A stretch of DNA of 64,000 nt, taken from assembly GCA_903925685.1 (NCBI GenBank), contig CAIYGI010000112.1, forward strand, positions 1,784-65,783. The letters run 5' to 3'. Below, piece after piece: positions 3,613 to 57,335 of this stretch (position 1 is the stretch's first letter; each line of letters opens with the position of its first letter). Under the pieces are notes generated by a model that saw only the letters and a program-made list of their open reading frames with translations, searched no databases and had not been told where the DNA came from. Source of the DNA: an uncultured bacterium (GTDB taxonomy: Bacteria > Verrucomicrobiota > Kiritimatiellia > CAIKKV01 > CAIYGI01). The translations under genes and the position numbers were made by a program.

Positions 3613-3619
3613 CTTAGCC

Positions 3620-5455
3620 TCATTTCGCGTGGCGGAGATGCCATAGCATCTGAATGATCATGGCGGCCTGGTTGGCCGTCCAGTAGAGCACCAGGGCCGA
3701 AGGCATGCTGTAGAAAAAGACCAGCATGATCACCGGCATAAAAACCATCATGCGCTGCTGGGCGGGATCGCCGGTCGAGGGCGTGATCTTGGTCTGCCAG
3801 ACCGAAAGCGCCGTCATGATCAGCGGCAAAAAGTTAACGCCGCTCACGATCGGCAGCAGGCCCGGAAACAGATTTTCCGCCTCGCTCAGGTCGTGTATCC
3901 AGAGGAAGTGCGCATGTCGCAATTCCACGGCGCTGCGCAGCACGTTGTAGAGCGCGATAAAAACCGGGATTTGGATCAGGATCGGCAGGCAACCGCTCAT
4001 CGGGTTGACCTTGTTCTTTTTGTAAAGCTCCATCGTCGCCTGTTGAATCTTCTGCGGCTTGTCCCGGAACTTCTCCTTCAGCGCCTTGATCTCGGGCTGT
4101 AGCGCCTGCATGCGTTTCATGCTCTCGGTGCCCTTGTGCGTCAGCGGCCAGAAGATGCCGCGCACGAGCAGCGTCACCAGGATGATCGCCAGGCCGTAAC
4201 TCGGTATCAACGCCACCAGATGATTGAGCAGCCAGAGCAGCGCGATGCAGACCGGCTTGAACCAGCCGAACTCCATGATATCGTCCATGTGAACGCCCAT
4301 GTTCCGCATCGCGGAATAGTCCTTGGGCCCGACGTAGTACTGGCATTGACGTTGCGCCGTCTCGCCCGGCTTGAGCGTCAGCGCGGCGAAGCGCAGGGCC
4401 GCCGAAACGTCGCGCAGCAGCGCCACCTTCGCCCACGAGGCGGGATTTCCGGGCTGCTCGCCCGGCGCGGTCGTGCGCGTCGCGCGCAGGTCCACGCCAA
4501 CGCAGGGCTCGGGTGGCTTGACGATTTGCACGAAGAATTTGTTCTTAACGGCCACCCAGTCGAGATCCTGGTTGATGCGCTCGTTAATGGACAGCGGCAT
4601 CTGGCGCGTGGGAGCAGGTTTGCCCATCGAGCAACCGCCACCGCGCAACGCGGGTTCCTGAAAGAAATCTCCGAGCGCCGGAGTTCCGCCGAAAGTTCCG
4701 CCCGATCCCCAATGACGCGTCTTCTCCCCGCCCACGGAATTCAGGGAATCGATGCCCAGATGCGTAAAACCGCTGATTTCGGTCTCGCCCGCAATGCGTC
4801 CCATCGTCCCCACGCGCAAGCCTGTGGCCGGCAGCGTCACCGCCGTCGCGCCGCGATTTTCGAAGCTGTCGGTCACCTGCACCTGATAGCCCTGTTCCGG
4901 CACGACTATTTCGCGAACCAGTCGCACGCCGCCGGAGACCGCTTCCAGCGTCGCCTTGCGGCCGCCGGGCGCCACGACAATGCTGAAGGCGCTCTGCGCG
5001 TCAAAGCCAGGCAGTTTGTCGTAACTCATGGCCGGCCAGGCGCGGAAATTGAAACTCACCGGCGCGCTGTCACGCTGGTTGGCGGTCGGATAGCGGTCCA
5101 GTTCGGCCGAGCAGATGCCGCCGCCGTGCGAAGTCAACTCCACCCGCAACATTCCATTGGTCAGAACAACATGTGTTTCTTCCGGAAGCACGGACACGGC
5201 ATCCGCCACTGCGGCGTTCGTCGGGGCCGACAGCACAGGCGCTTCCGCCCGGGCCTCCAGCGTCGTCCCGGTCGCGGCGGCGGACGGCACATCCACGCCC
5301 GGCGGGACTGCGGCCGGGGCATTAGTCGCGGCAATCGCGGGACCAGGGACGATCGCCGGCGCCGGGAAAAACTTTTGGGAAATCGGCCCCCAAGCCAGCA
5401 GGGCGGCAAAAAGCAGGACCACGACGGAAATATCGAAAATTGACCAGCGTTTCAT
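3620..5455 (-). CDS. yidC: membrane protein insertase YidC
   Basis: 611 aa. The N-terminal TM segment, large periplasmic domain and C-terminal conserved core (KPVCIALLWLLNHL...LVRGIFWPLTHKG...LYWTANQAAMIIQ) are typical of YidC/Oxa1. Confidence 0.92.
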   Translation of the reverse strand: MKRWSIFDISVVVLLFAALLAWGPISQKFFPAPAIVPGPAIAATNAPAAVPPGVDVPSAAATGTTLEARAEAPVLSAPTNAAVADAVSVLPEETHVVLTNGMLRVELTSHGGGICSAELDRYPTANQRDSAPVSFNFRAWPAMSYDKLPGFDAQSAFSIVVAPGGRKATLEAVSGGVRLVREIVVPEQGYQVQVTDSFENRGATAVTLPATGLRVGTMGRIAGETEISGFTHLGIDSLNSVGGEKTRHWGSGGTFGGTPALGDFFQEPALRGGGCSMGKPAPTRQMPLSINERINQDLDWVAVKNKFFVQIVKPPEPCVGVDLRATRTTAPGEQPGNPASWAKVALLRDVSAALRFAALTLKPGETAQRQCQYYVGPKDYSAMRNMGVHMDDIMEFGWFKPVCIALLWLLNHLVALIPSYGLAIILVTLLVRGIFWPLTHKGTESMKRMQALQPEIKALKEKFRDKPQKIQQATMELYKKNKVNPMSGCLPILIQIPVFIALYNVLRSAVELRHAHFLWIHDLSEAENLFPGLLPIVSGVNFLPLIMTALSVWQTKITPSTGDPAQQRMMVFMPVIMLVFFYSMPSALVLYWTANQAAMIIQMLWHLRHAK

Positions 5456-5514
5456 GACATCGATTCCTTATGTTGCTGGAACTCGGGTTGCTTGTCCTTC
5501 AGTGCTATCAGCCT

Positions 5515-5757
5515 TCAGCCTATCGACCTGGCTTTACTTGCGCGCGGCGGAACGGGGTCCCAGCCGCCGGCATGAAACGGGTGACAGCGGACAATCCGCT
5601 TCAACCCCAGCCATACGCCCCGCGGCGCGCCGTGTGCGCGTATGGCCTCCATCGTATAATGCGAGCATGACGGTTCGAAGCGGCAGCAAGGCCCCAGCAA
5701 CGGCGCCAGCGAAAGCTGGTAGAGACGGATTAGCACCCGCAACAGTCCGGCAATCAC
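5515..5757 (-). CDS. yidD: membrane protein insertion efficiency factor YidD
   Basis: 80 aa (LIRLYQLSLAPLLGPCCRFEPSCSHYTMEAIRAHG), matching the YidD family. It overlaps the rnpA stop by 4 nt. Confidence 0.85.
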   Translation of the reverse strand: MIAGLLRVLIRLYQLSLAPLLGPCCRFEPSCSHYTMEAIRAHGAPRGVWLGLKRIVRCHPFHAGGWDPVPPRASKARSIG

Positions 5758-6158
5758 CGCTCGCCGCCTTCCCGCGCCACCAGCCCCGCGCGCCGCCCCA
5801 GGCGCCGCATTTCATCCACCACCTCGGGCCATGGCGCAAACAACAAATCACGCCGCGCCACGAGGATCAAATCGGCCGCGCCGCGAAAGTGTTCGCGGTT
5901 CAGGCGCCAGGCGGCGCGCAGCCGCCGCTTGGCGCGGGCGCGGGCCACGGCTCCGCCGACTTTACGGCTGGCCACCACGCCGAGGCGCAAGGCGGCGCCC
6001 GGGCCACTGCGGGGATAAAGCACCATCAAACGTCCGCGCGTCGCGCGGCCCTGCGCATAGGCATCTTGAAAAAGCGCGCCGGAGCTGATCCGCTGCGCGC
6101 GGCTCAAGCCCAAATCCGGCGTCCGTTCGCGTTTTGCCTTCTCCGCGCCGTCCGCCAC
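5754..6158 (-). CDS. rnpA: ribonuclease P protein component
   Basis: A basic protein immediately downstream of rpmH, in the conserved rpmH-rnpA-yidD-yidC order. The start may lie internal to the ORF. Confidence 0.75.
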   Translation of the reverse strand: MADGAEKAKRERTPDLGLSRAQRISSGALFQDAYAQGRATRGRLMVLYPRSGPGAALRLGVVASRKVGGAVARARAKRRLRAAWRLNREHFRGAADLILVARRDLLFAPWPEVVDEMRRLGRRAGLVAREGGER

Positions 6159-27563: not shown

Positions 27564-30500
27564 TCATGGATGTTCTCCGTTCTCCTGCACAATCCCGATT
27601 TCCTCATCTGTCAGGCCGTAAAGCGCGTAGACCAGACGGTCAACCTCGCGGTTCGCCGCGTGAATCTGGCGGTCAAGCGCTTCCTTGTCGGGCGGGGACT
27701 TCGCGACGGCAACCTGCTTACGCAAACTCATGATCTGGTCCACCAGGTTGTGGAGGATGGCAGATGCGCCTCCTGTCGGGATGGCGATGGGCATTTGTTC
27801 GATGTATTGCTTGTTAAGCGCGATGTACCCGCCGCGAAATGGTGTACTGATCGACCGAAGGAAACGGCTCAACAAACTCGAATTGAGTATCCCGAGTAGG
27901 CAGTAGTAGTCGATGGTTGCATCTTCGCGAAGCGTAATCCCGTAGCCGCCTCCTCCACCCCCGCCACTTCCGACAAAAAAGTAGCGTCCTTCAAGGTCCG
28001 GCGCAAAGCAACTGCCCGTCGCAATGGAAGGAACAAGCAACTTGGGAAGAGGCATTTTGGTGTGGTTCTTTTTGTAAACATATCCGTACCATTGCAGCCC
28101 CAGCTTGCCTTTGTTTCGCCCAGACAACCGCGCCTTGCATTCAGTTAGATAAGCCCAAGTCAGAGGAAATCGTTGAGCGTAAGCATCTGAAGGAATCAGC
28201 GCGGACTTTCCTGATCGAGTCTCATAAGGAAAGACAAGTAGTTTGGAAACATCAGACAAGAAGTAACGCCGAATATTGAGCGAACCCTTTAGAAATGGCT
28301 TCAAATGAGCGCTCTCGAACCAATGCTCTCGGCCAGTGTGCTTTGACGAGCAAAGGACTCTGCCTTTGTCACGTTTCGCTTCCTCAAGAATGAAGACATC
28401 GTCGGCATCTGTCTGAAGCCCGACAAATAGGTCGGCGATATCGCCAAGTTTTACCGGCCACTTATTGAGGGCGTTAAAGACCTTCGCCGTCGCTCCGACC
28501 GCGAAATTCCATTCTTTCGAGGTGATAACCCGGGCTGGGATGCGTCCCTCGGCTCCTGTCGTCGTGGTCTTTCTGCCTTTGGCGCGATACAATGCCGCCG
28601 CTTCATGGACAAGCATGGGAAACACATCTGTTCTCTTTCGACCTGCGGGTTCCAATTGTTCCATGCGCCATGCGTCAAGGTCATCAACCTTTACATAATG
28701 GCACTCATCTATGCCCGCTTTATGGAGGAATAGCAGGCACGTATAAGTCGTAGCCCCTGCGAACACCTGTTGATCTCCGAAATGAACGACGTGGGCAAGG
28801 TGTCTGCCGCCGGCAATGATCCCGCGCAAGGCTTCGCCGTACTGCGCATTGAAAAACTTGTGCGGCAAAATGAAGCCCAGCCGCCCGGATTTGTTCAAGA
28901 GACTCAGCGCCTTCTCGACGAAGACAACGTAAATGTCATAGTTCCCGGCCGCTGCCGACCGGTAGAGCGACTTGTAAAGCTCGACCTCGGCTGGCGCCCA
29001 TTCCTTCATCATCTGAATGCGGATGTACGGCGGATTGCCGATGATTGCATCGAAGCCTGGTAGAACGCGCTCGCCGAGCGGCGGTTTCGGCGAAACCGCC
29101 CTACCAAACACTTCTGGAAACGCTTGCGGCCCGTCGAAAACATTGATGCGGTAGCGGTCTTCCTCCGGGAGCAAGGAAAGTTGCTGGTGCCTGTAGGCAT
29201 CCGATCCGATAAGGGAGTTTCCGCATTTGATGTTGCTGCCGAGGTCCGGCAAGGCGCGTTGGTGGAACAGTTCAAACTGCTTCGTGATACTCTCTTGGGA
29301 TTCGCCTTCCAGCACTTTCAAGAGCAGCGAAAGTTTCGTCACCTCGACGGCTTGCGCGTCGATGTCCACGCCGAAAATGTTGTTGAGAAGGATTCGCTTT
29401 CTCTCGTCGGTGGTCAGGCGGAAGCAAGGTTTCAGGTGTCGGGTGTCAGGTGTCAGACCAATACCGGCGATTTCGTATAGACAAGGGTTCCGTCCTTTCA
29501 TCCAGGATCCTGGATCATGTTCGGTGTAGTACTGCAAATGCCAGTCCAGCAGTAACTGATAGGCGCCCAGCAGGAACGAGCCCGAACCGCAGGCCGGGTC
29601 GAGAATCTTCAACTTGGCCGCCTGCTTCGGCGTCCCTACTTCCAGTAATTTGCCGACCGTGTTCTTGACGATGTAATCCACGATATAGGTCGGGGTGTAA
29701 TAGACGCCACCCGCCTTGCGGACTTCCGGCTTTTCCTCAACCTTGGCCTGATGCCCGGCGGTCAGCCGGATTACCTTGCCTAGGAAGCGCTCGTAAACCT
29801 GGCCGAGAATGTCGGCGGACAAAACGGAAAACTCGTAGGGGCTTTCCGGGTAGTAGAGATTGGCGAGAATATCGTGCAAAACCTTGTCGTCAAGGTTCAA
29901 CTTCAGGGTCAACTCGTCCGGCGCTTCGGGCCGGTCCTTTTCGCGCTGAAAATGGAACAAACCAGAGTTGTAACGATCATCAGCCTGTTGGAAGAACTCG
30001 CAGAGCCGGGGGTAGACCCGCTCGCCGTTGCGAAGCGTCATCAGCCGCCCGTAAGGTTCAATGCCACGATCTTCACAGATACGCAGGAAGATGATCCTGT
30101 CAATGGTGCACTGAACGGAGAAGTTCAGTTCCCGTTGCGACAAGTCAGGATTCCGCAAAGCGATGGTCCGGGCGAGAAGGTCACGCCAGCGTTCAATTTC
30201 CTCAAGAAATGCCTCGTCCACACTGGTAGTTCCGTGCTTGCCTTTGGCGCCTTCGGCGAACTTGTCGAACGAGCCTTTCAGCACGGCTTCGCGGGAGAAG
30301 ATCGCGGCAATCTCGTCCCACTTCTCGGCGTACTGCCCGGAAGTCAGATACATGACGCGACCGACCGCCGCCGAATCGTTCTTGCAGGGTTTGACGCGGC
30401 AGTCATAGACGGCGAACTCACCGAAGTCAGTCAAGATGCTCAAAGGGAGTTTCGCCGACCAGCCATAACGCCGGAGTTGGTAAGCCGGGTGCGGGGAGTC

Positions 30501-30797
30501 TTTGATGTTCACGGACGGCTTCTTGCATTCGACAAAAAACTTACGCGCGCCGCCGATTCGGAAGCAAGAATCCGGGGCCTCCGTCGCGCCCCCGATCTTC
30601 AAGGCTTGCTCGTGAATCACGTCCTTGTAAGCTTCGGCGTAACCTTGCTCGTTGTGTACGTCCCAGCCCAGCGCTTTGAAAAACGGATCAATGAACTCGA
30701 CCCGGATTTCCGTCTCCTTGTACTGGCCGGACTCGTACGCTTCGCGTTGTGCGTCGTAGCGTTCAAGCAGCCGTTCGATCTCTTGCGGAACAGCCAT
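27564..30797 (-). CDS. Type IIG / PglX-like bifunctional restriction-modification enzyme (N-terminal nuclease-like region + gamma-class N6-adenine DNA methyltransferase + C-terminal specificity region)
   Basis: 1077 aa from MAVPQEIERLL, with GAGG at -12 and a TATAAT about 36 nt upstream. MTase motif I is DPACGSGSFLLGAY and motif IV is IIGNPPYIRIQ. The N-terminus (EIRVEFIDPFFKALGWDV) is typical of Type IIG/IIL and BREX PglX enzymes. The gene is visibly more AT-rich than its flanks. Confidence 0.8.
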   Translation of the reverse strand: MAVPQEIERLLERYDAQREAYESGQYKETEIRVEFIDPFFKALGWDVHNEQGYAEAYKDVIHEQALKIGGATEAPDSCFRIGGARKFFVECKKPSVNIKDSPHPAYQLRRYGWSAKLPLSILTDFGEFAVYDCRVKPCKNDSAAVGRVMYLTSGQYAEKWDEIAAIFSREAVLKGSFDKFAEGAKGKHGTTSVDEAFLEEIERWRDLLARTIALRNPDLSQRELNFSVQCTIDRIIFLRICEDRGIEPYGRLMTLRNGERVYPRLCEFFQQADDRYNSGLFHFQREKDRPEAPDELTLKLNLDDKVLHDILANLYYPESPYEFSVLSADILGQVYERFLGKVIRLTAGHQAKVEEKPEVRKAGGVYYTPTYIVDYIVKNTVGKLLEVGTPKQAAKLKILDPACGSGSFLLGAYQLLLDWHLQYYTEHDPGSWMKGRNPCLYEIAGIGLTPDTRHLKPCFRLTTDERKRILLNNIFGVDIDAQAVEVTKLSLLLKVLEGESQESITKQFELFHQRALPDLGSNIKCGNSLIGSDAYRHQQLSLLPEEDRYRINVFDGPQAFPEVFGRAVSPKPPLGERVLPGFDAIIGNPPYIRIQMMKEWAPAEVELYKSLYRSAAAGNYDIYVVFVEKALSLLNKSGRLGFILPHKFFNAQYGEALRGIIAGGRHLAHVVHFGDQQVFAGATTYTCLLFLHKAGIDECHYVKVDDLDAWRMEQLEPAGRKRTDVFPMLVHEAAALYRAKGRKTTTTGAEGRIPARVITSKEWNFAVGATAKVFNALNKWPVKLGDIADLFVGLQTDADDVFILEEAKRDKGRVLCSSKHTGREHWFESAHLKPFLKGSLNIRRYFLSDVSKLLVFPYETRSGKSALIPSDAYAQRFPLTWAYLTECKARLSGRNKGKLGLQWYGYVYKKNHTKMPLPKLLVPSIATGSCFAPDLEGRYFFVGSGGGGGGGYGITLREDATIDYYCLLGILNSSLLSRFLRSISTPFRGGYIALNKQYIEQMPIAIPTGGASAILHNLVDQIMSLRKQVAVAKSPPDKEALDRQIHAANREVDRLVYALYGLTDEEIGIVQENGEHP

Positions 30798-30835
30798 TTC
30801 TACCTCGTGAATCTGAAGGGGCATTATAACGCATA

Positions 30836-32092
30836 TTACTCGGGCAACCAGCCGCGGCGGATGGCGTCTTCGATCATGGCGGAGGCGAAGGCCCAGAGCG
30901 GCGCGGCGCCTTCTTCCATGTGGCGGTTGCGCGCCCGCACCTGGGCCGCCTTGACGCCGTGATCGCGCCAGGCCACGCCGCCGGTGGCGTAGTTGTGCAT
31001 GATCGGCTGCAGGCGGTCGAGCGCCGCCGCGAAACGGGCCTCGGGCGTTTCCCGCGCCTCGAACTCGTCCCACAGCGCCCGCATGGCAACGGCCTGATCC
31101 GGCGGCAGCATCGCAAACAAACGCGCCGCCGCCCGCTGTTCGCGAGCGGGCTTCTCGACGTTGCCGCGCTCGTCGTAGCAGTAGGTATCGCCCGCGTCGA
31201 TTTCCACGATGTCGTGGACCAGCGCCATGCGGATCACCCGCCCGAGGTCGAGTTGCACCGGCGCATGCTCCGACAGCAGCGCGGCCATCAGCGCCAGGTG
31301 CCAGGAATGCTCGGCGTCGTTCTCGTAACGTGAGCCGTCGGTCAGCCAGGTCCGGCGCACAATCTGCTTGAGCTTGTCCGCCTCGGCCACGAAGGCCATC
31401 TGCCGCGCCAGCCGCGCGTTGCCCGCCGCGGGCAGTTCCGCCGGCGGTTCCTCGACGGCCACGCCGCGGGCGCGTTCGATCCAGCGCAGCAGTTCGCGCG
31501 CCACGGCGCGCTTGCTGCCCAGCGGCAAGGGCTGCGGCGGCGCGCCCGGCGCCAGCAGCACCACGCGATTCGTGTCAACATCGAAGCCGGCGTCGGGCTG
31601 GGTCACATCGTTGGCGACCATCAGATCGAGGCCCTTCTCCGCCAGCTTGCGCGCCGCCTCTTCCAGCATGTGGTCGGTCTCCGCGGCAAAACCCACGAAA
31701 GTCCGCGCGCCTTTGAGGGGCTTGATCGTCTTGAGGATGTCCGGTGTGGCCTCCAGCTCGAACGCCGGATGCGCGCCGCCTTTTTTCCGTTTCACCGCCG
31801 CGCACTGCACCGGCCGCCAGTCGGCTACCGCCGCCGCCATCACCAACGCCTCGCAGGCCGGCAGCGCCGCCCGCACGGCGGACAGCATCTCCTCCGCCGA
31901 GGTTACCCGCAGCAGCGTCACGCCACCCGGCGCAAGCAGCGCCGTGGGCCCGGAGACCAGCGTCACGGCATGGCCGCGCCGCGCCGCCTCGGCGGCCACG
32001 GCGTAGCCCATCTTGCCGGACGAGCGGTTGCTCAGAAAACGCACGGGATCCCAGAATTCACGCGTCGGCCCGGCTGTGACAAGCAAATGCAT
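30836..32092 (-). CDS. coaB: phosphopantothenate-cysteine ligase (CoaB domain) fused to a C-terminal HD-domain phosphohydrolase (YfbR-like)
   Basis: The N-terminal about 225 aa (LLVTAGPTREFWDPVRFLSNRSSGKMGYAVAAEAARRGHAVTLVSGP...FVGFAAETDH...LDLMVANDV) are collinear with the CoaB half of E. coli Dfp. The C-terminal about 190 aa carry HD motifs (ENDAEHSWHLALMA, LVHDIVEIDAGDT). No CoaC flavoprotein domain is present. Confidence 0.75.
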   Translation of the reverse strand: MHLLVTAGPTREFWDPVRFLSNRSSGKMGYAVAAEAARRGHAVTLVSGPTALLAPGGVTLLRVTSAEEMLSAVRAALPACEALVMAAAVADWRPVQCAAVKRKKGGAHPAFELEATPDILKTIKPLKGARTFVGFAAETDHMLEEAARKLAEKGLDLMVANDVTQPDAGFDVDTNRVVLLAPGAPPQPLPLGSKRAVARELLRWIERARGVAVEEPPAELPAAGNARLARQMAFVAEADKLKQIVRRTWLTDGSRYENDAEHSWHLALMAALLSEHAPVQLDLGRVIRMALVHDIVEIDAGDTYCYDERGNVEKPAREQRAAARLFAMLPPDQAVAMRALWDEFEARETPEARFAAALDRLQPIMHNYATGGVAWRDHGVKAAQVRARNRHMEEGAAPLWAFASAMIEDAIRRGWLPE

Positions 32093-32139
32093 GGGATGTT
32101 ACTCGGGACAATCTTTGTATATGCAGTCAAGCGCGCCGT

Positions 32140-33045
32140 TCAGCTTTTTGCCCGACGTTTCATTTCGTCGTCCATGGCGGCGATCTTGGCGCGCACGACC
32201 GGTTCGGCCTCGTCGTAGATCGCGCGGATTTCCGGGTCGGTGAAGCGGTAGGTCCGCTCCTCGAAGCTGGTGGTCGAGAGTCGGTCGAAAAGCCGCTGCC
32301 GGGCCTGCGCCAGGTCCTTGCCGTAGATGTGGTAGGAGTCGGCGTGCCAAGTCAGCCGCGCCAGCCGCACCGGCCGTCCGCGGCGGCGCGCCACTTCGGC
32401 GGCCACAATCTGCTGGTTGAACTGGATGAAGCCGAACATGTTCATGAAGTTCGCGCCCCAGGCGTCGTTGCTGCGGAAGCGCACGTTGCAGTTGAGCCAG
32501 CCGGTGCCGGTCTCGTCGTCCATGATGCGATACCAAAGCGACTGCAGGCAGGGGGGATCGTAACAGTCGAGGTCGGTGTTCGGCATCCAGGTGATCATCT
32601 GCGCCTGCCGCGTAAATGGTTGCTGAACCAGCTTGGCGATCACCGCCTCGACTTGGTCAACCTTGAATGGTCCCGTTTCGACCTGCCCGCCGTCGCGCTT
32701 CTCGCGCCAGACGCCGTAATTCGCCAGCCGTCCGTGGTAGGTGTACTCCCAGCGAGTGTCGGCGGGATCGTTCTGGCACCTGACCCAGTGGTCCTTGACG
32801 CCCTGCAATTCCATCACATATTCGCGCAGGTCTTCGATGCCGCCGGGGAAGGCCTTGTGAATCATGGGCTCGGCCAGCGGGTCCTCGACGGTGATGTCCA
32901 TCGTCGCGTCCAGGCTCAGCGGATCGCCGGGCTTGTCGTATTGCGTGGCAAAGCGCCCGCCGTGTTCGTTGAGCGCCAGCAACGCCCGTTCGTAGGCCTG
33001 CGCCAGCGACTGTCCGCTCACATGCAAAACCGGTATGCTCTTCAT
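32140..33045 (-). CDS. divergent thymidylate-synthase-fold protein (ThyA-like)
   Basis: 301 aa. It aligns with E. coli ThyA: VDQVEAVIAKLVQQPFTRQ with IDQITTVLNQLKNDPDSRR, PPCLQSLWYRI with APCHAFFQFYV (catalytic Cys), CNVRFRSNDAWGANFMN with CQLYQRSCDVFLGLPFN (the Asp and Asn are conserved), and HADSYHIYGKD with TGGDTHLYSNH. The N-terminal third is divergent. Confidence 0.6.
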   Translation of the reverse strand: MKSIPVLHVSGQSLAQAYERALLALNEHGGRFATQYDKPGDPLSLDATMDITVEDPLAEPMIHKAFPGGIEDLREYVMELQGVKDHWVRCQNDPADTRWEYTYHGRLANYGVWREKRDGGQVETGPFKVDQVEAVIAKLVQQPFTRQAQMITWMPNTDLDCYDPPCLQSLWYRIMDDETGTGWLNCNVRFRSNDAWGANFMNMFGFIQFNQQIVAAEVARRRGRPVRLARLTWHADSYHIYGKDLAQARQRLFDRLSTTSFEERTYRFTDPEIRAIYDEAEPVVRAKIAAMDDEMKRRAKS

Positions 33046-34373
33046 GTTTGGTCTCCCTCTCCCGCCGCTTCCGCCAGCATTTGTTCCACCGCCGCCACGC
33101 TGCGCGCCAGGGCGCCGCGCTTTTTCGCAACCAGCTCCGCCGCGCGCGCGCCCAGCGCGGCGCGTTCCGCCGGATCGTCCAGCAACCGCCCCACCGACTC
33201 CGCCAGTTCACGCGCCGACGCCACACGCAGCAGCGCGCGCGCCGCATCGAACTCAAACGCGATTTCCGGAAAATTTTCCAGATGCGGTCCCGTCAATATC
33301 GCCTGGCGCTCGACCGCCGGTTCGATGATGTTCTGCCCGCCGATCTGCGTCAGGCTCTTGCCGACAAACACCACCGTCGCCGCCGCGTAGTATCCACGCA
33401 ACTCGCCGGTTGTGTCCACCAGCAGAATATCGGGCGCCGCCGCGCCGGCCCCGGCCTCCGGCCAGGCCGCCATCTCTTTCTTGCAGCGGACCGTAAACCC
33501 GGCGGCCGCGATCGAGCCCAGCACTTCCGCGCGACGTTCGGCGTGGCGCGGCACGAGCACCAGACGCAGCGCCGGAAACCGCGGCCGCAGCGCGCGCAAG
33601 GCGTCGAGCAGCGCCTGCTCCTCGCCGGCCCAGGTCGAGCCGCCCACCAGCACCGGCACGCCGGCCGGCCAGCCCAGGCGCGCCAACGACGCGCGCGCGG
33701 CGGCAACGGCGGCGGGAGTCACGGGCGCAAGATCGTATTTGAGCGATCCCGCCAGCACGACGCGCCCCGCGGGGACGCCGAGGTCGCGCCAGCGCGCCGC
33801 ATCGTCCGCCGTCTGCACCAGGATCAGCCGCAACCCCTCCGCCGCGCGCCGCACGAAGGAACGCAGCCAGCGGTAGCCGCGATGCGAGCGGGCGGAGATG
33901 CGGCCGTTGACGATGGCCACGGGTATCCCGCGCGCCGCGCACTGGCGCAGCATGTTCGGCCAAAACTCGCCCTCGGTGAGAATCAGGGCCGCGGGTCGGA
34001 TCGCGTCGAGCGCCCGCCGCACGACTGCCGGAAAGTCTGCCGGGTAGTAGATCAGCACATCGCCCGCTTCCACGATTTCTTCGGCCGTGCGATGGCCGGT
34101 GGAACTGGTCGTGCTGAGCACGAAGGATGAAGCGGGATGGCGCATGCGCCAGGCGTTCATGAACTGCTTGGCGACGAAGACTTCGCCCACACTCACGGCA
34201 TGGATCCAAATCCGCCGCCGCGATCCGAGAGCCGCGCGCACGTCGGGCGCGTAATGCCCGAGACGCTGACCGAAGTCCCGACGATAACCGCCGCGCCGCC
34301 GCATGTGCAGCAGGAACTTGGGCAGCATCAACAGATACGCGAACGTAAACAGCAGGTTATAGACGAACCACAT
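33042..34373 (-). CDS. waaA: 3-deoxy-D-manno-octulosonic acid (Kdo) transferase
   Basis: The start is at the internal ATG 34373 (MWFVYNLLFTFAYLLMLP...RGGYRRDFGQRLG). The GT30 family body matches WaaA. The stop overlaps the ThyA-like start by 4 nt. Confidence 0.8.
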   Translation of the reverse strand: MWFVYNLLFTFAYLLMLPKFLLHMRRRGGYRRDFGQRLGHYAPDVRAALGSRRRIWIHAVSVGEVFVAKQFMNAWRMRHPASSFVLSTTSSTGHRTAEEIVEAGDVLIYYPADFPAVVRRALDAIRPAALILTEGEFWPNMLRQCAARGIPVAIVNGRISARSHRGYRWLRSFVRRAAEGLRLILVQTADDAARWRDLGVPAGRVVLAGSLKYDLAPVTPAAVAAARASLARLGWPAGVPVLVGGSTWAGEEQALLDALRALRPRFPALRLVLVPRHAERRAEVLGSIAAAGFTVRCKKEMAAWPEAGAGAAAPDILLVDTTGELRGYYAAATVVFVGKSLTQIGGQNIIEPAVERQAILTGPHLENFPEIAFEFDAARALLRVASARELAESVGRLLDDPAERAALGARAAELVAKKRGALARSVAAVEQMLAEAAGEGDQT

Positions 34374-34461: not shown

Positions 34462-35193
34462 CTAAATCCCCGTGGCCAGACGGACCGCCAACCGCTCGGG
34501 CAAACCGGCGGCCCGGATATGCCGCTGGGCGCTGGCGACATCGTAGACCACGCGCCGTAATTCCACCACGCGCCCCGCCAGATCGTAAAGTCCGTACGAG
34601 GCCCGCGGATCTCCGTCGCGAGGCTGCCCGACACTGCCCACATTGATGAAATACTTTTTGCCGAGGGTGATGATCACCCGCAGCGTGTTGAGCCGCGCAA
34701 CCGTGCCGCTTTTTTCGAAAATCACCGGCTGGTGCGTATGGCCGTGGAAACACACCGAGGTGCTCTGATAACTGAAGCTGGATTCGGCTTCCAACTCGTC
34801 GAACACATAGCCCCACTTCTCGGGCATGTCGAGCGTGCTGTGAACCAGCAGGAAACCGTTCACCATGCGTTTCATGCTCAATGCGCGCAGGAAGGCGATG
34901 TTGTCCTCGCCGATCTGCATCCGGGTCCAGTCCACGACATTGGCCGCCAAGGGGTGGAAATCGCGCGCCAATTCGTCGTGCGCCACATAGTGATCGTGAT
35001 TGCCGCGCACGCATATCACGCCCAATTCCCGCACGCGTTGCAGGGTTTCCGCCGGGTTGGCGTTGTATCCCACCAGATCGCCGACGCACACGTAATCGGT
35101 CGCCCCCTGCTCCTTGGCATCCGCCAATACCGCGGTCAGTGCCTCCAAATTTCCGTGAATATCTCCTAATATCGCGTATCGCTTCCCCGCCAT
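34462..35193 (-). CDS. metallophosphoesterase (calcineurin-like, YfcE/MJ0936 family)
   Basis: AILGDIHGN, VCVGDLVGYN, GNHD and GHTH motifs. Confidence 0.8.
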   Translation of the reverse strand: MAGKRYAILGDIHGNLEALTAVLADAKEQGATDYVCVGDLVGYNANPAETLQRVRELGVICVRGNHDHYVAHDELARDFHPLAANVVDWTRMQIGEDNIAFLRALSMKRMVNGFLLVHSTLDMPEKWGYVFDELEAESSFSYQSTSVCFHGHTHQPVIFEKSGTVARLNTLRVIITLGKKYFINVGSVGQPRDGDPRASYGLYDLAGRVVELRRVVYDVASAQRHIRAAGLPERLAVRLATGI

Positions 35194-35212: not shown

Positions 35213-35890
35213 CTAAACCTTCAAAATGGCCGCCGCGACGGCCAGATCCTCCGAAAAGGTGATTTTGATGTTAGCCCAGCTCGAAGGCACCAGGTGTACC
35301 GCCTCGCCGGACCGCTCGATCAATGAGGCCTCGTCCGTCATCGCCGCCAGGCGCTTGTCCAGCGCCAGATAGGCTTTCCTCAATGCCTTGCAGTAAAATG
35401 TCTGCGGCGTCTGCACCGCCCAGAGCTTGCTGCGGTCCACCGTGCGCGCCACCAGGGTGCCGTGTTCAACTTCCTTGAGCGTATCGACCACCTTGACCGC
35501 CGCCACCCCCGAACCGCTGCGTTTGGCAGACTGCACCGTCTTGGCGATCAATTCCGGCGTCACACACGGACGGCTCCCGTCATGCACCGCCACCAGCAGC
35601 ACATCGTCCCCCAGCGCTTCGAGCCCGAGCAGCACCGACGCCTGGCGAGTTGCGCCGCCGGCCACCACCTTTGCCACCTTGGACAAACCGAACATCCGCA
35701 CCAGCCCGATCGCCGATTCGACGCGTTCCTTGCGCACCACCACAACCACCCGGTTGATCTCCGGGCACTTCTCGAAGGCAAGCAGCGACCACGCCAGGAC
35801 GGGACGTCCGCCCAGCGACAAAAAGGCCTTGTCGACACCAGCCCCCATCCGTTCGCTTTTGCCAGCAGCTACAATCACAGCGCCTACCAT
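35213..35890 (-). CDS. ispD: 2-C-methyl-D-erythritol 4-phosphate cytidylyltransferase
   Basis: 225 aa: AVIVAAGKSERMG, VVVVV, HDGSRP, VQTPQTF. Confidence 0.9.
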   Translation of the reverse strand: MVGAVIVAAGKSERMGAGVDKAFLSLGGRPVLAWSLLAFEKCPEINRVVVVVRKERVESAIGLVRMFGLSKVAKVVAGGATRQASVLLGLEALGDDVLLVAVHDGSRPCVTPELIAKTVQSAKRSGSGVAAVKVVDTLKEVEHGTLVARTVDRSKLWAVQTPQTFYCKALRKAYLALDKRLAAMTDEASLIERSGEAVHLVPSSWANIKITFSEDLAVAAAILKV

Positions 35891-50429: not shown

Positions 50430-50633
50430 TCATGTTTTTCGTGCCTTGTGGTCAGTCTCGGAGATCAGCGCATGATCCTCGACAATTCCGCTGCGGGCTT
50501 GCCATAGTGCACCATGCGCCGAGCAATCATTCGTAGTGCGTCCACATTTGGATGACTTTGACTGTCTTGATGCTGTCCAAGACTTGATACACAAGGCGGT
50601 GTTGAATATTAATGCGCCTTGCTCACCAGTCAA
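50430..50633 (-). pseudogene. possible degraded YoeB/Txe-family toxin remnant
   Basis: A 67-aa ORF overlapping the stop of the YefM-like region by 11 nt. It resembles YoeB weakly at both ends (IFNTALCIKSW with IWSEESWDDYLYW; GALWQARSGIVEDHALIS with SGFWSRRITEEHRLVY) but lacks the middle and C-terminal catalytic parts. Confidence 0.25.
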
Positions 50634-51561
50634 GTTCCTTGTCGCACTTTTCGACCGGCGTTTTCAATCCCTTTATGATGGAGTCCCTCATGCCGGGAAT
50701 GGACGACAGGTACAACGTTGCTTGAATCGCCCTCCAGTCATCTTCCGAGATAAGCACGGCGCTGTGTCGCTTACCCGCGATTTGCAGCGGGGCATGCGAT
50801 TCGGCGACATCGTCAAGAAGGGTGTAGAGATTTGGTCTCGTTCCGAAGGAGCCTTGGCGCAGGAAGGAGAGCGTCAGGGCAATGACCTTTGGGTTGCGCA
50901 TGATGAAGGGGTGGGCGGTGTTCACCGCGGCGAAATCCTTCATGCCAGCCAGTTTTGTCCGCTCCACCGATACTTTGCCGTCGTTGATGCCGGGGATCAG
51001 GGCCGAAAGGATCCAGTTGATGGAACGGGTGCCTGCGATCACGCCGACCTCGACCGGCGGCGCGGGGAGCCGGTTGGGTAGCGAGTTGCCGGCTGTACCG
51101 AGCTGCAGCCCGGCCGGTCCGTTGATCCAGCGAAAGAGTGAAAAGCTCCCAAGTTTGTCCACTACTTCGCTGCCCTGATTGGGCGGGGCCAGCATCACGA
51201 TTCGGCCGGCGTTCTCCAGTCTGTGCGAGGCAAAATATTGCCGCAGCACGATGTTGCCCAGCGAATGCGCCACAAAATGAATCCTGGCCGGCTTCGCGGC
51301 CTGGCATTGGGCAAGCAAGGGGGCCAGATGTTCATCGGCCAGTTGTTGCACGGTATTCTTGCGGGATGGATATTGCATCGAGTGTACGGCGTAGCCGGCG
51401 TCGGTCAAAGCCTTCTGCATGCGCTTCATGCTGCGACTGGTTCGCGCCAAACCGTGCAGCAGCATAACGATTTCCTGGCCCGGCCGCATGCGATTGTCGA
51501 TCGCCGTTTTGGCGGGTGTATGACCGAACATGGTTGCGGCGAGTTTCCTTATGCCAGGCAT
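50623..51561 (-). CDS. alpha/beta hydrolase (lipase-like GxSxG) continuing in frame into a Phd/YefM-type antitoxin-like C-terminal region
   Basis: The N-terminal about 220 aa have VMLLHGLARTS and FVAHSLGN (nucleophile elbow). The last about 90 aa (from the internal ATG, MRNPKVIALTLSFLRQGSFGTRPNLYTLLDDVAESHAPLQIAGKRHSAVLISEDDWRAIQATLYLSSIP...) align with E. coli YefM ([51 protein letters not shown]). No stop codon separates the two parts. Confidence 0.6.
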   Translation of the reverse strand: MPGIRKLAATMFGHTPAKTAIDNRMRPGQEIVMLLHGLARTSRSMKRMQKALTDAGYAVHSMQYPSRKNTVQQLADEHLAPLLAQCQAAKPARIHFVAHSLGNIVLRQYFASHRLENAGRIVMLAPPNQGSEVVDKLGSFSLFRWINGPAGLQLGTAGNSLPNRLPAPPVEVGVIAGTRSINWILSALIPGINDGKVSVERTKLAGMKDFAAVNTAHPFIMRNPKVIALTLSFLRQGSFGTRPNLYTLLDDVAESHAPLQIAGKRHSAVLISEDDWRAIQATLYLSSIPGMRDSIIKGLKTPVEKCDKELDW

Positions 51562-55510: not shown

Positions 55511-56266
55511 ATGTCCACCATCAATGCGAAACTTGTCGAACTGCTGGACCGGGTCGCCCATGGACAGGTCTCGCCGGACGACGCCCGCAAGCAGATCGAG
55601 TCCGGCGGCGAGCATCACGTCGGTTACGCGCGTATCGACACCGACCGCCTGCGTCGCTGCGGTCTGCCGGAGGCGATCTTCAGTCCCGGCAAGACCGTCG
55701 GGCAGATCGCGGGTATTTTGCGCGCCATGCGCGAGGCGGGGCAGAACGGCATGGCGACGCGGGTGACCCAGGAACAGGCGGACGCCATCGGCAAGGAGAT
55801 TCCGGAGATTGTCTACCACCCTGACGCGCGCATCGTGACGCTCGACACGGTCCCGCTGCCGGCGCCGGTGGGACTGGTGTCCGTGGTCTGTGCCGGCACC
55901 TCCGATATTCCTGTCGCCGCCGAAGCCGCGCTCACCGCCGAGCGTATGGGCGCGCGCGTCGAAGCGCTCTACGATGTCGGCGTCGCCGGTTTGCACCGCT
56001 TGTTGCGGCATGTGGATGCGCTGCGCGCTTCGCGTGTCGTGGTGGTTGTCGCGGGCATGGAGGGCGCGCTGCCGTCCGTCGTGGGCGGACTGTTGGACCG
56101 TCCGCTGATTGCCGTGCCGACGAGCATCGGCTACGGCGCCGGACAGGGCGGCTTTGCGGCGCTGCTGGCCATGCTCAATTCATGCGTGCCGGGCATTACC
56201 GTCGTCAATATCGACAACGGTTACGGGGCCGGCGTGGCCGCCGCGCTGATCAACCGAAATCAATAA
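55511..56266 (+). CDS. larB: nickel-pincer cofactor biosynthesis protein LarB (PurE-like carboxylase/hydrolase)
   Basis: 251 aa. The N-terminal LarB-specific domain (HVGYARIDTDRLRRCGLPEAIFSPGK) and the C-terminal PurE-like fold (VVCAGTSDIPVAAEAALTAE) are present. No larC/larE/larA genes are in the window. Confidence 0.7.
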   Translation: MSTINAKLVELLDRVAHGQVSPDDARKQIESGGEHHVGYARIDTDRLRRCGLPEAIFSPGKTVGQIAGILRAMREAGQNGMATRVTQEQADAIGKEIPEIVYHPDARIVTLDTVPLPAPVGLVSVVCAGTSDIPVAAEAALTAERMGARVEALYDVGVAGLHRLLRHVDALRASRVVVVVAGMEGALPSVVGGLLDRPLIAVPTSIGYGAGQGGFAALLAMLNSCVPGITVVNIDNGYGAGVAAALINRNQ

Positions 56267-57063
56267 ACGTTTTTCGGTCCGGGAAAGGCGCCGGAGATAA
56301 CCTCGCGCCGGTAGGCGGCGATGGCTTCGCGCATGGCCGCGCCGGTTTCGGCGTAGCGCTTGGACATCCGCGGCGTGTCCTCGGGCGGCGTGAGGCCCAC
56401 CAGATCGTTGAGCACCAGAATCTGACCGTCGCATTGAGCCCCGGCGCCAATGCCGATCGTCGGCGCCGCGCAGGCCTCCGTCAGCGCCGCGCCAAGAGCC
56501 TGCGGGACGCATTCCACGACCACGGCGAAGGCGCCTGCCGCAGACACGGCGCGCGCGTCTTCGATCAGGCTCGCCGCGGCGGGATTAGTGCGTCCCTGAA
56601 CCTTGTACCCGCCCAAAGTCAGCACGCTCTGCGGTGTCAAACCGATATGGCCCAGTACCGGAATACCGTTGGACACCAAGCGGGCGATGGTGGCGGCGCG
56701 AAAAACTCCGCCTTCGATCTTGACTGCGCCCGCCCCGGCTTCCTGCACAAAACGCCCGGCATTGCGCAGCGCCTGTTCGTCGGAAACTTGATACGAAAGA
56801 AACGGCATGTCGGCCACGACCAGCGCCTGTTGCGCGCCGCGCACCACGGCGGCGGTATGATGCAGCATCTGTTCCATGGTAACCGGCAGCGTCGTGTCGT
56901 AGCCCAGTACCGATTGCGCCAGCGAATCGCCGACCAGGATCAGGTGCGCCCCGCCTTCGTCCGCCAGCCGGGCCGTCGCGGCATCGTAAGCCGTCAGGCT
57001 CACGATTCGTTCGTGCCCCTTGAGCGCGCGAATGCGCGCCGCTGTCCAATGCTTGCTTTTCAT
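56260..57063 (-). CDS. panB: 3-methyl-2-oxobutanoate hydroxymethyltransferase
   Basis: The start is at ATG 57063 (MKSKHWTAARIRALKGHERIVSLTAYDAATARLADEGGAHLILVGDSLAQSVLGY...VKIEGG), a canonical PanB. Confidence 0.88.
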   Translation of the reverse strand: MKSKHWTAARIRALKGHERIVSLTAYDAATARLADEGGAHLILVGDSLAQSVLGYDTTLPVTMEQMLHHTAAVVRGAQQALVVADMPFLSYQVSDEQALRNAGRFVQEAGAGAVKIEGGVFRAATIARLVSNGIPVLGHIGLTPQSVLTLGGYKVQGRTNPAAASLIEDARAVSAAGAFAVVVECVPQALGAALTEACAAPTIGIGAGAQCDGQILVLNDLVGLTPPEDTPRMSKRYAETGAAMREAIAAYRREVISGAFPGPKNVY

Positions 57064-57335
57064 AAAGTCATCCAGTCGGGTGTTGTCGAGACGGCGCGCC
57101 GTCGTTGCGTGCGTACTGATGCGTTGCGCGGAAATAGTAAGCCAAAACCCGCCGCAGGCAAAGGAGGAACTGGCCGGGTTCTCAGAGGCGGGAAATCCGC
57201 GCATGTTTCGATCTTGTTGCGAACTAACGCCTTTGTGCTACATTTTCCGCTTTCCGCGGCACATGGCGGCCGGACTTTTGTGGTGACTTGCCGAAAACCT
57301 TCCTGAAAGCGTGGCCATGCGCAAAAAGGTTGAAA

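Follow-up and report, generated by a model that had tools for sequence, protein, structure and literature searches.

In most bacteria, CoaB and CoaC are fused as the bifunctional CoaBC; separate coaB and coaC genes are found in streptococci, enterococci and eukaryotes. The CoaB reaction releases CMP. In E. coli, dfp (coaBC) is translationally coupled to the dUTPase gene dut, with a 23-nt overlap, and may be taken as a precedent for a CoaB gene beside a gene of dUMP metabolism, the functional reason for which is not established. Among thymidylate synthases (TS), the archaeal enzymes are barely characterised (PMC9931769). The YfbR/HDDC2 family of HD-domain phosphohydrolases includes a characterised member whose highest activity is towards dCMP, dUMP and dTMP and which supplies TS with dUMP; enzymes of the YfbR type favour deoxynucleotides, and E. 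coli YfbR leaves ribonucleotides unhydrolysed (PMC5098729).

Here we describe a locus from an uncultured Kiritimatiellia bacterium, within an analysed stretch of 64,000 nucleotides (the window), in which coaB also adjoins a probable gene of dUMP metabolism. In this case the partner is a TS-like gene instead of the dUTPase gene, and CoaB is fused to an HD domain instead of CoaC.

Organization of the locus

The locus comprises three tightly linked genes, waaA, the TS-like gene and coaB-HD, all of which are intact open reading frames, as an earlier reading of the sequence alone (the sequence-only reading) had proposed (Table 1). The waaA stop and the TS-like start share the ATGA that forms the 4-nt overlap described in that reading. 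The spacer before coaB-HD was scanned and contains no terminator-like site, and the ATG of a restriction-modification (RM) gene (position 30824) lies 11 nt past the coaB-HD stop. Since the identical gene order was found again on independent metagenome contigs, an assembly or frameshift artefact is ruled out. With GC3 values of 0.81–0.87, waaA, the TS-like gene and coaB-HD are normal resident genes by codon-position GC. The window also contains panB.

Table 1. Positions of the genes, domains and key codons of the locus, numbered along the window.
Feature	Position	Strand	Remarks
waaA (Kdo transferase)	33042..34373	minus	443 aa counted from in-frame ATG; PF04413 6e-58, NF004388 8e-102
TS-like gene	32140..33045	minus	301 aa; PF00303 1.8e-9, residues 125-252
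Cys166 codon of TS-like gene	32548..32550	minus	predicted catalytic nucleophile, aligned with E. coli C146; checked on codons
Asn202 codon of TS-like gene	32440..32442	minus	equivalent to E. coli N177, uracil-versus-cytosine determinant
TS-like/coaB-HD spacer	32093..32139	minus	47 nt
coaB-HD fusion gene	30836..32092	minus	418 aa; PF04127 and PF13023
CoaB (phosphopantothenate-cysteine ligase) domain	31478..32092	minus	fusion residues 1-205
Variable linker of fusion	31400..31477	minus	residues 206-231
HD_3 (YfbR/HDDC2-type) phosphohydrolase domain and stop codon	30836..31399	minus	residues 232-418
Type IIG (Eco57I/MmeI-like) RM gene, context	27564..30824	minus	PF07669 1.2e-41, PF02384, PF20473
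Metallophosphoesterase, context	34462-35193	minus	co-directional, upstream; Pfam families of identical metagenome contig
ispD, context	35213-35890	minus	co-directional, upstream; Pfam families of identical metagenome contig

Family assignment of the TS-like protein

The TS-like protein contains the motifs DPPC166LQ, VRFR191S192ND194 and WGANFMN202, all noted in the sequence-only reading, and profile alignments equate C166, R191, S192, D194 and N202 with C146, R166, S167, D169 and N177 of E. coli ThyA. Equivalents of R126', H207, Y209 and Y94 are likewise present. Across the family, the alignment shows the residues for catalysis and dUMP binding to be conserved; Cys166 is kept in 57 of 58 sequences (alignment A1), and Asn occupies position 202 in 57/58 members, whereas Asp is found there in the phage enzymes specific for cytosine. 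Some family members are interrupted by inteins at the catalytic Cys. In contrast to canonical ThyA of the E. coli and L. casei type, W80 is not kept in the family, members of the PVC clade have Gln instead of R127, and no equivalents were mapped for R21 and E58.

Alignment of the protein with canonical ThyA is confined to the C-terminal two thirds (hhalign, residues 75–248 against 70–216, 18% identity). No canonical TS match was found in the N-terminal third, as the Pfam, PDB-profile and hhalign alignments begin at residues ~75–125, and the closest solved structures are 13–20% identical to the protein. Among the family models, TIGR03283 (methanogen TS; 1.6e-30) gives the best match and is alone in covering the full length, residues 9–246 aligning with model positions 3–199 of 201. 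The N-terminal architecture is common to the TS-like protein and the methanogen-type enzymes, as are the motifs TR(R/Q)A-M-IT, PCL, RS-D, N and H-IY. However, the TS-like protein is bacterial rather than archaeal, is longer by ~90 residues, contains insertions as well as a long C-terminal helix (residues 271–300), and is about 30% identical to the one labelled methanogen-type example. The N-terminal third, described as divergent in the sequence-only reading, would thus appear so because the protein is closer to archaeal (methanogen-type) than to canonical bacterial ThyA.

The protein falls under every curated NCBIfam TS cutoff (106 bits against 174.6 for TIGR03283; 19 bits against 108 for TIGR03284, canonical ThyA). 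The same pattern was obtained for all 68 family members tested, none of which reached the TIGR03283 cutoff. When scored with an HMM of the TS-like family, a methanogen-type TS reached 91 bits, whereas scores of 28–50 bits were obtained with E. coli ThyA and with four phage enzymes, namely three hydroxymethylases and the TS-like protein of Xp12 (pyrimidine-modifying, TS-fold). In a neighbour-joining tree, this methanogen-type TS is the sister of the family, and the phage dUMP/dCMP hydroxymethylases (SPO1 gp29-like, T4 gp42) and MilA cluster away from it. On these comparisons, the family is nearer to methanogen-type ThyA than to the canonical bacterial enzyme.

More than 4,900 homologues were retrieved, the best 120 of them at least 70% identical, and species genomes contain 280 relatives, the best 80 of which are 67–96% identical. 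Verrucomicrobiota, Kiritimatiellia and Lentisphaerae have this family as their standard form, and its occurrence is patchy in Spirochaetaceae, Bacteroidales, Ignavibacteria and Armatimonadetes. The family is very conserved, evolving very slowly, and is not peculiar to this genome. The protein, for which a real but atypical ThyA had been one of two suggestions, proved to be an ordinary member of a ThyA clade typical for the phylum. It is most likely a PVC-type, archaea-like ThyA and the probable cellular thymidylate synthase, with predicted folate use and hydride transfer.

Among the best 80 of the 280 species loci, no neighbour is conserved throughout and no kinase or transferase gene accompanies the TS-like gene; an adjoining DHFR gene was noticed at none of the loci. 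Five Spirochaetaceae loci have the TS-like gene flanked by a purH fragment on one side and, on the other, by glyA (SHMT), which scores over its NCBIfam cutoff. At eight other Verrucomicrobia loci, a HAD hydrolase gene directly precedes the TS-like gene (gap of -4 to 23 nt), and the best matches of its product are YjjG-type pyrimidine nucleotidases, far under the cutoffs. This translational coupling lends some support to the link between a dNMP phosphohydrolase and the TS-fold enzyme at which the sequence-only reading had hinted.

The CoaB-HD fusion and its distribution

The fusion of CoaB to a YfbR-like HD domain, recognised in the sequence-only reading, was borne out by matches to PF04127 (DFP/CoaB; 1.4e-65, residues 2–180) and PF13023 (HD_3; 1.4e-54, residues 238–400). 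Unlike E. coli Dfp/CoaBC, the fusion lacks a CoaC domain and carries the HD domain at its C-terminus. The CoaB domain matches the structures 5int (6e-49) and 1u7u (E. coli CoaB, 7.5e-40) and shares 59–62% identity with the CoaB half of bifunctional CoaBC proteins. Its motifs SN22RSSGKMG, AAVAD91 and K101-x-K-K are all intact and conserved, and in a tree it interleaves with coaC-linked CoaBs, with ordinary branch lengths. By sequence, it therefore has the features of a normal, fully conserved CoaB.

CoaC is indeed missing from the window, as PF02441 matched none of the 46 likely-coding ORFs scanned and tblastn with three CoaC domains found nothing. This had been regarded as an anomaly. However, the 120 best homologues of a Verrucomicrobiota CoaC are all stand-alone proteins of 175–224 aa from the same phyla, CoaBC architecture occurs in only 4/120 best CoaB matches, and Kiritimatiellaeota and Verrucomicrobiota MAGs carry coaC and coaB as adjacent yet separate genes. 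Split coaC/coaB is the rule in this phylum, and a window without CoaC is therefore normal.

The HD domain matches 3kh1 (1.7e-70, 241 bits) and human HDDC2 (2.8e-15), and scores 26.7 bits with the E. coli YfbR equivalog NF003009. Its metal ligands H262, H293-D294 and D359, the H, HD and D of the YfbR/HDDC2 family, occupy invariant columns in 78 aligned fusion and stand-alone sequences, in which the linker has no conserved columns. It differs from this family in its fusion to CoaB, and is a predicted nucleotidase.

Both domains are present in 77 of the 120 best fusion matches (77 protein clusters). Among the best 80 of the 280 species loci, coaB adjoins the TS-like gene in 17 and bears the HD domain in 13 of these, in addition to the window; in all 13, coaB-HD directly follows the TS-like gene, and the flanks vary. 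In a sister clade, four Kiritimatiellia loci have TS-coaB without the HD domain and without a phosphatase downstream. Thus, the lineage-specific features are the shift of coaB to the side of the TS-like gene, away from the coaC and gmk of the ancestral arrangement, and the gain of the YfbR/HDDC2-type HD domain. Only the CoaB-nucleotidase fusion and its pairing with a DNA-precursor enzyme are new, and modestly so, most other oddities of the locus being normal for the phylum.

Functional interpretation

We consider it reasonably probable that the locus unites two housekeeping functions in a lineage-specific arrangement, the cell's TS and a monofunctional CoaB with a nucleotidase domain, next to waaA and the RM gene as chance neighbours. 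The 301-aa protein would be the TS, of a ThyA subfamily standard in PVC groups. Its predicted dUMP-binding residues are R146', R191, S192, D194, N202, H239 and Y241; Cys166 would attack C6 of dUMP, and a methylene unit, most likely donated by 5,10-methylene-tetrahydrofolate, would be transferred to C5 and then reduced to a methyl group. The 418-aa protein would form 4'-phosphopantothenoylcysteine from phosphopantothenate, CTP and cysteine, with CoaC presumably a separate polypeptide encoded elsewhere. From the putative ancestral order yicC-gmk-coaC-coaB, coaB would have been relocated directly downstream of the TS-like gene and would have gained its C-terminal 5'-(deoxy)nucleotidase domain. 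This domain probably acts on the pyrimidine dNMPs dCMP, dUMP and dTMP, and would therefore belong functionally with the TS-like gene, by supplying dUMP or controlling the dTMP/dUMP pool.

It seems improbable that the TS-fold protein instead modifies C5 of pyrimidines in some other way, for example as a dUMP hydroxymethylase, or uses another co-substrate, with the true TS (ThyX or canonical ThyA) encoded elsewhere. The scores under all curated TS cutoffs and the loss of W80 and R127 fit such an enzyme, and the family HMM places phage dUMP hydroxymethylases marginally over E. coli ThyA (50 versus 45 bits). This second suggestion of the sequence-only reading nevertheless lost ground: methanogen-type TS is the nearest labelled relative by a wide margin, the family is cellular, with a single weak match among 50,697 phage records, the TS-like gene lacks the kinase and transferase partners of hypermodification modules, and glyA adjoins it in Spirochaetaceae. 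Phosphatase adjacency alone is no sign of methylation, because phage hydroxymethylases adjoin phosphatases too. More conceivable, though still unlikely, is that the TS-coaB-HD arrangement is a neutral accident, the HD domain either being a chance-fused housekeeping phosphatase or serving CoaB chemistry, in which case it would hydrolyse the CMP that CoaB releases or a phosphorylated pantetheine intermediate. The HD domain is, after all, fused to CoaB and not to TS, the four sister-clade loci do without it, and the TS-coaB link is missing in about 63 of the best 80 (of 280) species loci. Moreover, a toxin-antitoxin pair inserted in the spacer separates the two genes in the relative L004, and stand-alone HD homologues have unrelated neighbours, with no nucleotide-metabolism context. 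On the other hand, the pair persists at 58–64% (fusion) and 72–77% (TS) identity despite changing flanks, the TS-like family is coupled elsewhere to another nucleotidase-like phosphatase, of the unrelated HAD type, and characterised YfbR-type enzymes prefer deoxynucleotides (PMC5098729).

That coaB-HD is a decaying duplicate, with a canonical bifunctional CoaBC elsewhere doing the real work, would accord with the fused form being usual in most bacteria, yet we find it scarcely credible. The CoaB motifs and HD metal ligands are all invariant in the 78 sequences, the architecture is kept in the 77 clusters, the GC3 of 0.87 is typical of a resident gene, and this phylum has split CoaC and CoaB.

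As for the flanks in the favoured two-function arrangement, the view of the locus as an unusual operon with waaA did not hold, as this linkage is restricted to relatives whose TS is at least 89% identical; L004 and L005, which are the closest relatives, are alone in having waaA upstream of the TS-like gene. waaA is an incidental neighbour with no functional tie to the TS-like gene or coaB-HD. The RM gene lies in a low-GC island (GC 0.537), and homology with L004, the closest relative, stops exactly at the coaB-HD stop. On the opposite side, the metallophosphoesterase gene and ispD are collinear in L004.

Family and active site of the TS-like protein

Most of the apparent strangeness of the gene group comprising waaA, the TS-like gene and coaB-HD is typical of the phylum: the TS is an archaea-like ThyA of the form carried by Verrucomicrobiota, Kiritimatiellia and Lentisphaerae (PVC type), and in these bacteria it is normal for CoaB to occur without a fused CoaC. 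Three features are left: a ThyA subfamily that no experiment has touched, a fusion of CoaB with an HD nucleotidase domain, specific to one clade and always placed after the TS gene, and a recurring neighbourhood of TS genes and phosphatases. The three minus-strand ORFs described in the sequence-only reading were recovered at the same positions, and their domain calls were backed by Pfam and NCBIfam.

Positions of the genes and other features in the window and in related loci (L numbers)
Feature	Location	Strand	Description
waaA	window 33042-34373	minus	Glycos_transf_N match
TS-like gene	window 32140-33045	minus	301 aa; weak thymidylate-synthase family match (Pfam)
Gln147 codon	window 32605-32607		in the TS-like gene
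Spacer, TS gene to coaB-HD	window 32093-32139		47 nt
coaB-HD	window 30836-32092	minus	418 aa; PF04127 and PF13023
RM gene	window 27564-30824	minus	type IIG, Eco57I/MmeI-like, in a 0.54-GC island
Segment collinear with L004	window 39223 down to 30836		over 8 kb, ~92-94% nucleotide identity
panB	window 56260-57204		ketopantoate hydroxymethyltransferase
ispD	window 35213-35890		
ispF	window 61331-61840		
1,992-aa ORF	window 38387-44365		gene-like codon-position GC, GC3 0.81
312-aa ORF	window 50623-51561		alpha/beta-hydrolase N-terminus, C-terminal Phd/YefM antitoxin domain
rnpA, yidC, plsY cluster	window 2968-6158		
Toxin-antitoxin insertion	L004 10935-11665		ribbon-helix-helix antitoxin and PIN-like toxin
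Folate-enzyme cluster	L046 8057-12208		Spirochaetaceae example
prfB-like, yicC, gmk, coaC, coaB	L088 2119-6278		separate, co-directional; Kiritimatiellaeota MAG
prfB-like, yicC, gmk, coaC, coaB	L089 460-4640		separate, co-directional; Kiritimatiellaeota MAG

The Pfam match of the TS-like protein is limited to residues 125-252. The protein is not an oddity of a single genome: a large protein database contains more than 4,900 homologues, and a search with one genome for each GTDB species gave 280 relatives, of which the best 80 are 67-96% identical to it. The best 120 database homologues are 70-100% identical and about 295-300 residues long; the named organisms among them are Verrucomicrobia, Kiritimatiellia and Lentisphaerae MAGs. 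Automatic pipelines already label a large number of the entries 'thymidylate synthase'. Beyond the PVC phyla, relatives occur in Spirochaetaceae, Bacteroidales/Prolixibacteraceae, Ignavibacteria and Armatimonadetes MAGs, and the wider family comprises 162 clusters below 1e-30 (50% clustering).

The methanogen-type ThyA model TIGR03283 was the top NCBIfam model for all 68 members tested, with full-length coverage, but none of them reached its cutoff (best E = 2.3e-45; best score 136 bits among the ten members with listed scores), and the window protein scored 106.2 bits against the required 174.55. The canonical ThyA models were missed by a wide distance (TIGR03284, 19.4 bits versus 108.35; PRK01827, 35.6 versus 327), and no curated equivalog model covers the family. 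When a reference panel of labelled sequences from phage records and E. coli was scored with the family HMM, the methanogen-type TS of virus PhiF1 ranked highest (91 bits), followed by the SPO1-like dUMP hydroxymethylase (50 bits), the ct3Et533 pyrimidine hydroxymethylase (49 bits), E. coli ThyA (45 bits), the Lydia dUMP hydroxymethylase (41 bits), the Xp12 enzyme (33 bits) and the T4 dCMP hydroxymethylase (28 bits). In a neighbour-joining tree, too, the family and the methanogen-type TS are sisters, with canonical ThyA and the phage modifiers apart. The divergent N-terminal third was confirmed, in that residues 1-74 could not be aligned to canonical ThyA and the mapping gave no equivalents of E. 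coli R21 and E58; given that the methanogen-type TS is the nearest relative, this region corresponds to an archaeal-type N-terminus.

To our knowledge, no member of the family has been purified or crystallised, and a literature search found no paper on the bacterial family, TIGR03283, MJ0757 or PDB 9iqc. Archaeal ThyA itself forms its own clade and is hardly characterised (PMC9931769; PMC9012536). The AlphaFold model of the TS-like protein (pLDDT 97) adopts the alpha/beta fold of the TS superfamily (PF00303), yet it is distant from anything solved, with Foldseek TM-scores of 0.5-0.6 against solved structures, and PDB profile searches found no solved structure of a close relative.

The active-site motifs named in the sequence-only reading are present, and independent alignments match them to C146, R166, S167, D169 and N177 of E. 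coli ThyA. The catalytic Cys in its P-C motif and the residues that bind the phosphate and the base are in place: C166, R146 (E. coli R126'), R191, S192, D194, H239 and Y241 align and are at least 90% conserved among 58 sequences, and Asn202 and Tyr103 (equivalent to E. coli Y94) are further family-conserved residues. N202, the counterpart of the dUMP-specifying E. coli N177, is Asn in 57 of the 58 family members, whereas the T4 dCMP hydroxymethylase, the Xp12 enzyme and the ct3Et533 pyrimidine hydroxymethylase carry Asp in this column. At position 147, where canonical ThyA has its second phosphate-binding Arg (E. coli R127'), Gln is found in the PVC clade only: all eight of the aligned close homologues of PVC type have Gln, and 45 of 50 sequences from the wider family have Arg. 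E. coli W80 is replaced by Lys84, without a conserved counterpart, while W83 corresponds to the partly conserved Trp87.

Purifying selection on the family is strong across phyla. Its distant members also lie in cellular contexts, and among 50,697 phage records there was a single weak match. Several members of the wider family (P0243, P0244, P0268, P0285, P0293, P0311 and P0323) contain inteins of the Hint/LAGLIDADG kind, several of them at or beside the catalytic Cys; one protein, P0249, carries an RNase H-like domain N-terminal to the TS domain. No neighbour is universally conserved across the species loci. In five Spirochaetaceae loci (L028, L045, L046, L051 and L059), the family gene stands between a purH N-terminal fragment and glyA, whose product, serine hydroxymethyltransferase (SHMT), scored above the NCBIfam cutoff. 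SHMT makes methylene-THF, which TS consumes. No ThyX, second ThyA or DHFR (folA) was found among the 46 likely-coding ORFs scanned in the 64-kb window.

Four points favour a true thymidylate synthase: an archaeal TS, not a hydroxymethylase, as the nearest relative; the uracil-type Asn at position 202; the housekeeping-like behaviour of the family; and the position between a purH fragment and glyA in five Spirochaetaceae loci. The TS-like protein is thus probably the thymidylate synthase of the cell; this is no more than probable because its scores fall below the curated cutoffs and the canonical folate site is only partly conserved. Verrucomicrobiota, Kiritimatiellia and Lentisphaerae, members of an environmentally and medically relevant superphylum, appear to make thymidylate via this archaea-like ThyA. 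Should it be their sole TS, the response of its cofactor site to antifolates and fluoropyrimidines may differ, and the family would offer a tractable bacterial stand-in for archaeal TS, which is poorly studied.

Conservation of the gene order

The stop codon of waaA and the start codon of the TS gene share an ATGA tetranucleotide, and the RM gene starts 11 nt past the coaB-HD stop. The GC3 values of waaA, the TS-like gene and coaB-HD (0.81-0.87) mark them as ordinary resident genes, and the patch containing the RM gene has a GC content of 0.54 versus 0.65-0.67 in the surroundings. The waaA product matched PF04413 (6e-58) and NF004388 (8e-102 over residues 5-435); it is assigned as a putative WaaA at the family level, its NF004388 score of 340.9 bits being below the equivalog cutoff of 438. 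An RNA element regulating the cluster was ruled out, as the window has neither Rfam matches at the gathering thresholds nor tRNA genes. Promoter- and terminator-like sites were no more frequent in it than expected by chance.

Among the best 80 of the 280 species-genome relatives, the fusion directly follows the TS gene in 13 loci, in addition to the window, and a coaB lacking the HD domain follows it in four Kiritimatiellia loci; about 63 loci have neither arrangement. waaA lies upstream of the TS gene in just two of them, the closest relatives, at 89% and 96% TS identity, so its proposed membership in an unusual operon is not supported. One relative, at 64% fusion identity, keeps the TS-fusion pair although the sequence on both sides is unrelated, indicating that the pair forms a two-gene cassette conserved in one clade, with waaA as an incidental bystander.

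The locus of the closest species representative, L004, is collinear with the window as far as coaB-HD, except that a toxin-antitoxin pair is inserted between the TS gene and coaB-HD, which implies that tight co-transcription of the two is not essential. The similarity stops exactly at the coaB-HD stop codon, identifying the RM gene as a strain-specific insertion.

The CoaB and HD domains

Residues 2-180 of the fusion match the CoaB domain (PF04127, 1.4e-65), and PDB CoaB structures were hit at 6e-49 and 7.5e-40. N22, D91 and K101-K104 lie in conserved columns within the SNxSSGKMG, AAVAD and KxKK motifs. The bifunctional CoaBC (Dfp) model TIGR00521 aligned at its positions 188-390 only (183.9 bits versus a cutoff of 219.7), and there was no PF02441 match in coaB-HD. 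In a tree, the domain interleaves with coaC-adjacent CoaBs at ordinary branch lengths. With all of its motifs kept, this is a regular CoaB as opposed to a decayed copy.

The reported absence of CoaC from the window was borne out: the 46 likely-coding ORFs include no CoaC flavoprotein, and tblastn with three CoaC domains was empty, as it was for the 83 related loci. However, the premise of a near-universal CoaC-CoaB fusion fails in this phylum. One Verrucomicrobiota MAG with the TS gene has coaC and coaB as overlapping but separate ORFs, and the best 120 matches to its CoaC are all stand-alone flavoproteins of 175-224 residues, the named organisms being Verrucomicrobia, Kiritimatiellae and Lentisphaerae. 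In Kiritimatiellaeota MAGs, yicC, gmk, coaC and coaB are four separate genes; yicC is also near dfp-dut in E. coli K-12. A stand-alone coaC is therefore expected elsewhere in the source genome, and the presence of panB 24 kb from coaB-HD fits with de novo CoA synthesis.

The distribution of the fusion in databases was profiled, and 77 of the 120 best homologues carry the two-domain architecture (53-89% identity). The lower-ranked matches among these 120 are stand-alone CoaB (~230 residues), stand-alone HD proteins (~230-250 residues) and four bifunctional CoaBC proteins. The fusion is real and lineage-specific; a frameshift artefact was ruled out as its origin, because 77 protein clusters, drawn from independent assemblies, share the architecture. 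Some fusion proteins are now named 'phosphopantothenoylcysteine decarboxylase' or just 'HD hydrolase', names that are wrong or incomplete.

The HD domain (residues 238-400) belongs to the HD_3 (YfbR/HDDC2) family, scoring 184.8 bits with PF13023 against a cutoff of 22.5, and its metal ligands H262, H293-D294 and D359 are invariant. It matched PDB 3kh1 (1.7e-70, 241 bits) and human HDDC2 (59 bits), and scored 26.7 bits with the E. coli YfbR equivalog NF003009 (cutoff 122). A characterised homologue hydrolyses dCMP, dUMP and dTMP best and lies on a route supplying dUMP to thymidylate synthase (PMC5098729). By analogy, we infer that the HD domain would hydrolyse 2'-deoxynucleoside 5'-monophosphates.

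A possible link between thymidylate synthesis and nucleotide dephosphorylation

The suggestion that the HD nucleotidase is tied to the TS-fold enzyme gained some support. In eight other Verrucomicrobia loci (L017, L020, L025, L027, L037, L050, L060 and L061), a HAD-IA hydrolase is encoded immediately upstream of the TS gene and is translationally coupled to it, with gaps of -4 to 23 nt. The best NCBIfam matches of these hydrolases are YjjG-type pyrimidine 5'-nucleotidases, far below the cutoffs; a second, unrelated phosphatase family thus recurs in the TS neighbourhood. In E. coli, the CoaB-containing dfp overlaps dut, the gene of the dUMP-producing dUTPase, by 23 nt. The HAD coupling and the dfp-dut overlap lend some support to the link. 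On the other hand, the sister clade (the four Kiritimatiellia loci) lacks the HD domain and has no phosphatase gene after coaB, and stand-alone HD homologues had no recurring partner in the three neighbourhoods examined. Phage TS-fold pyrimidine modifiers, hydroxymethylases among them, also adjoin phosphatases: Xp12 has a HAD hydrolase there, Lydia a gene labelled 'phosphohydrolase-like' and Adastra one labelled 'phosphatase' (L096, L098 and L099; PV031332.1, PP819608.1 and NC_073033.1). This counts against a specific link, as the adjacency of TS-fold enzymes and phosphatases is a general theme. The HD domain may accordingly be coupled in function to the TS, but this is less likely than not. 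The two unrelated nucleotidase-like phosphatases (HD and HAD), together with the location of CoaB near dUMP genes both here and in E. coli, raise the hypothesis that dNMP dephosphorylation is integral to thymidylate metabolism in these organisms.

It is also conceivable, though very improbable, that the PVC-type TS is a third kind of ThyA-fold thymidylate-forming enzyme, with an archaeal-type cofactor site that uses a non-canonical C1 donor or reductant instead of the methylene-THF/DHF cycle, and that it works in one module together with its own pyrimidine dNMP phosphatase, the HD domain fused to CoaB here and the HAD hydrolase elsewhere. Such a module would link the synthesis of dTMP with recycling at the nucleoside level, and the CTP/CMP turnover of CoaB would tie it to coenzyme A synthesis.

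Elsewhere in the window, ispD and ispF lie 25 kb apart, and the ORF combining hydrolase and antitoxin domains may be a genuine fusion, or ORF extension may have joined two genes.
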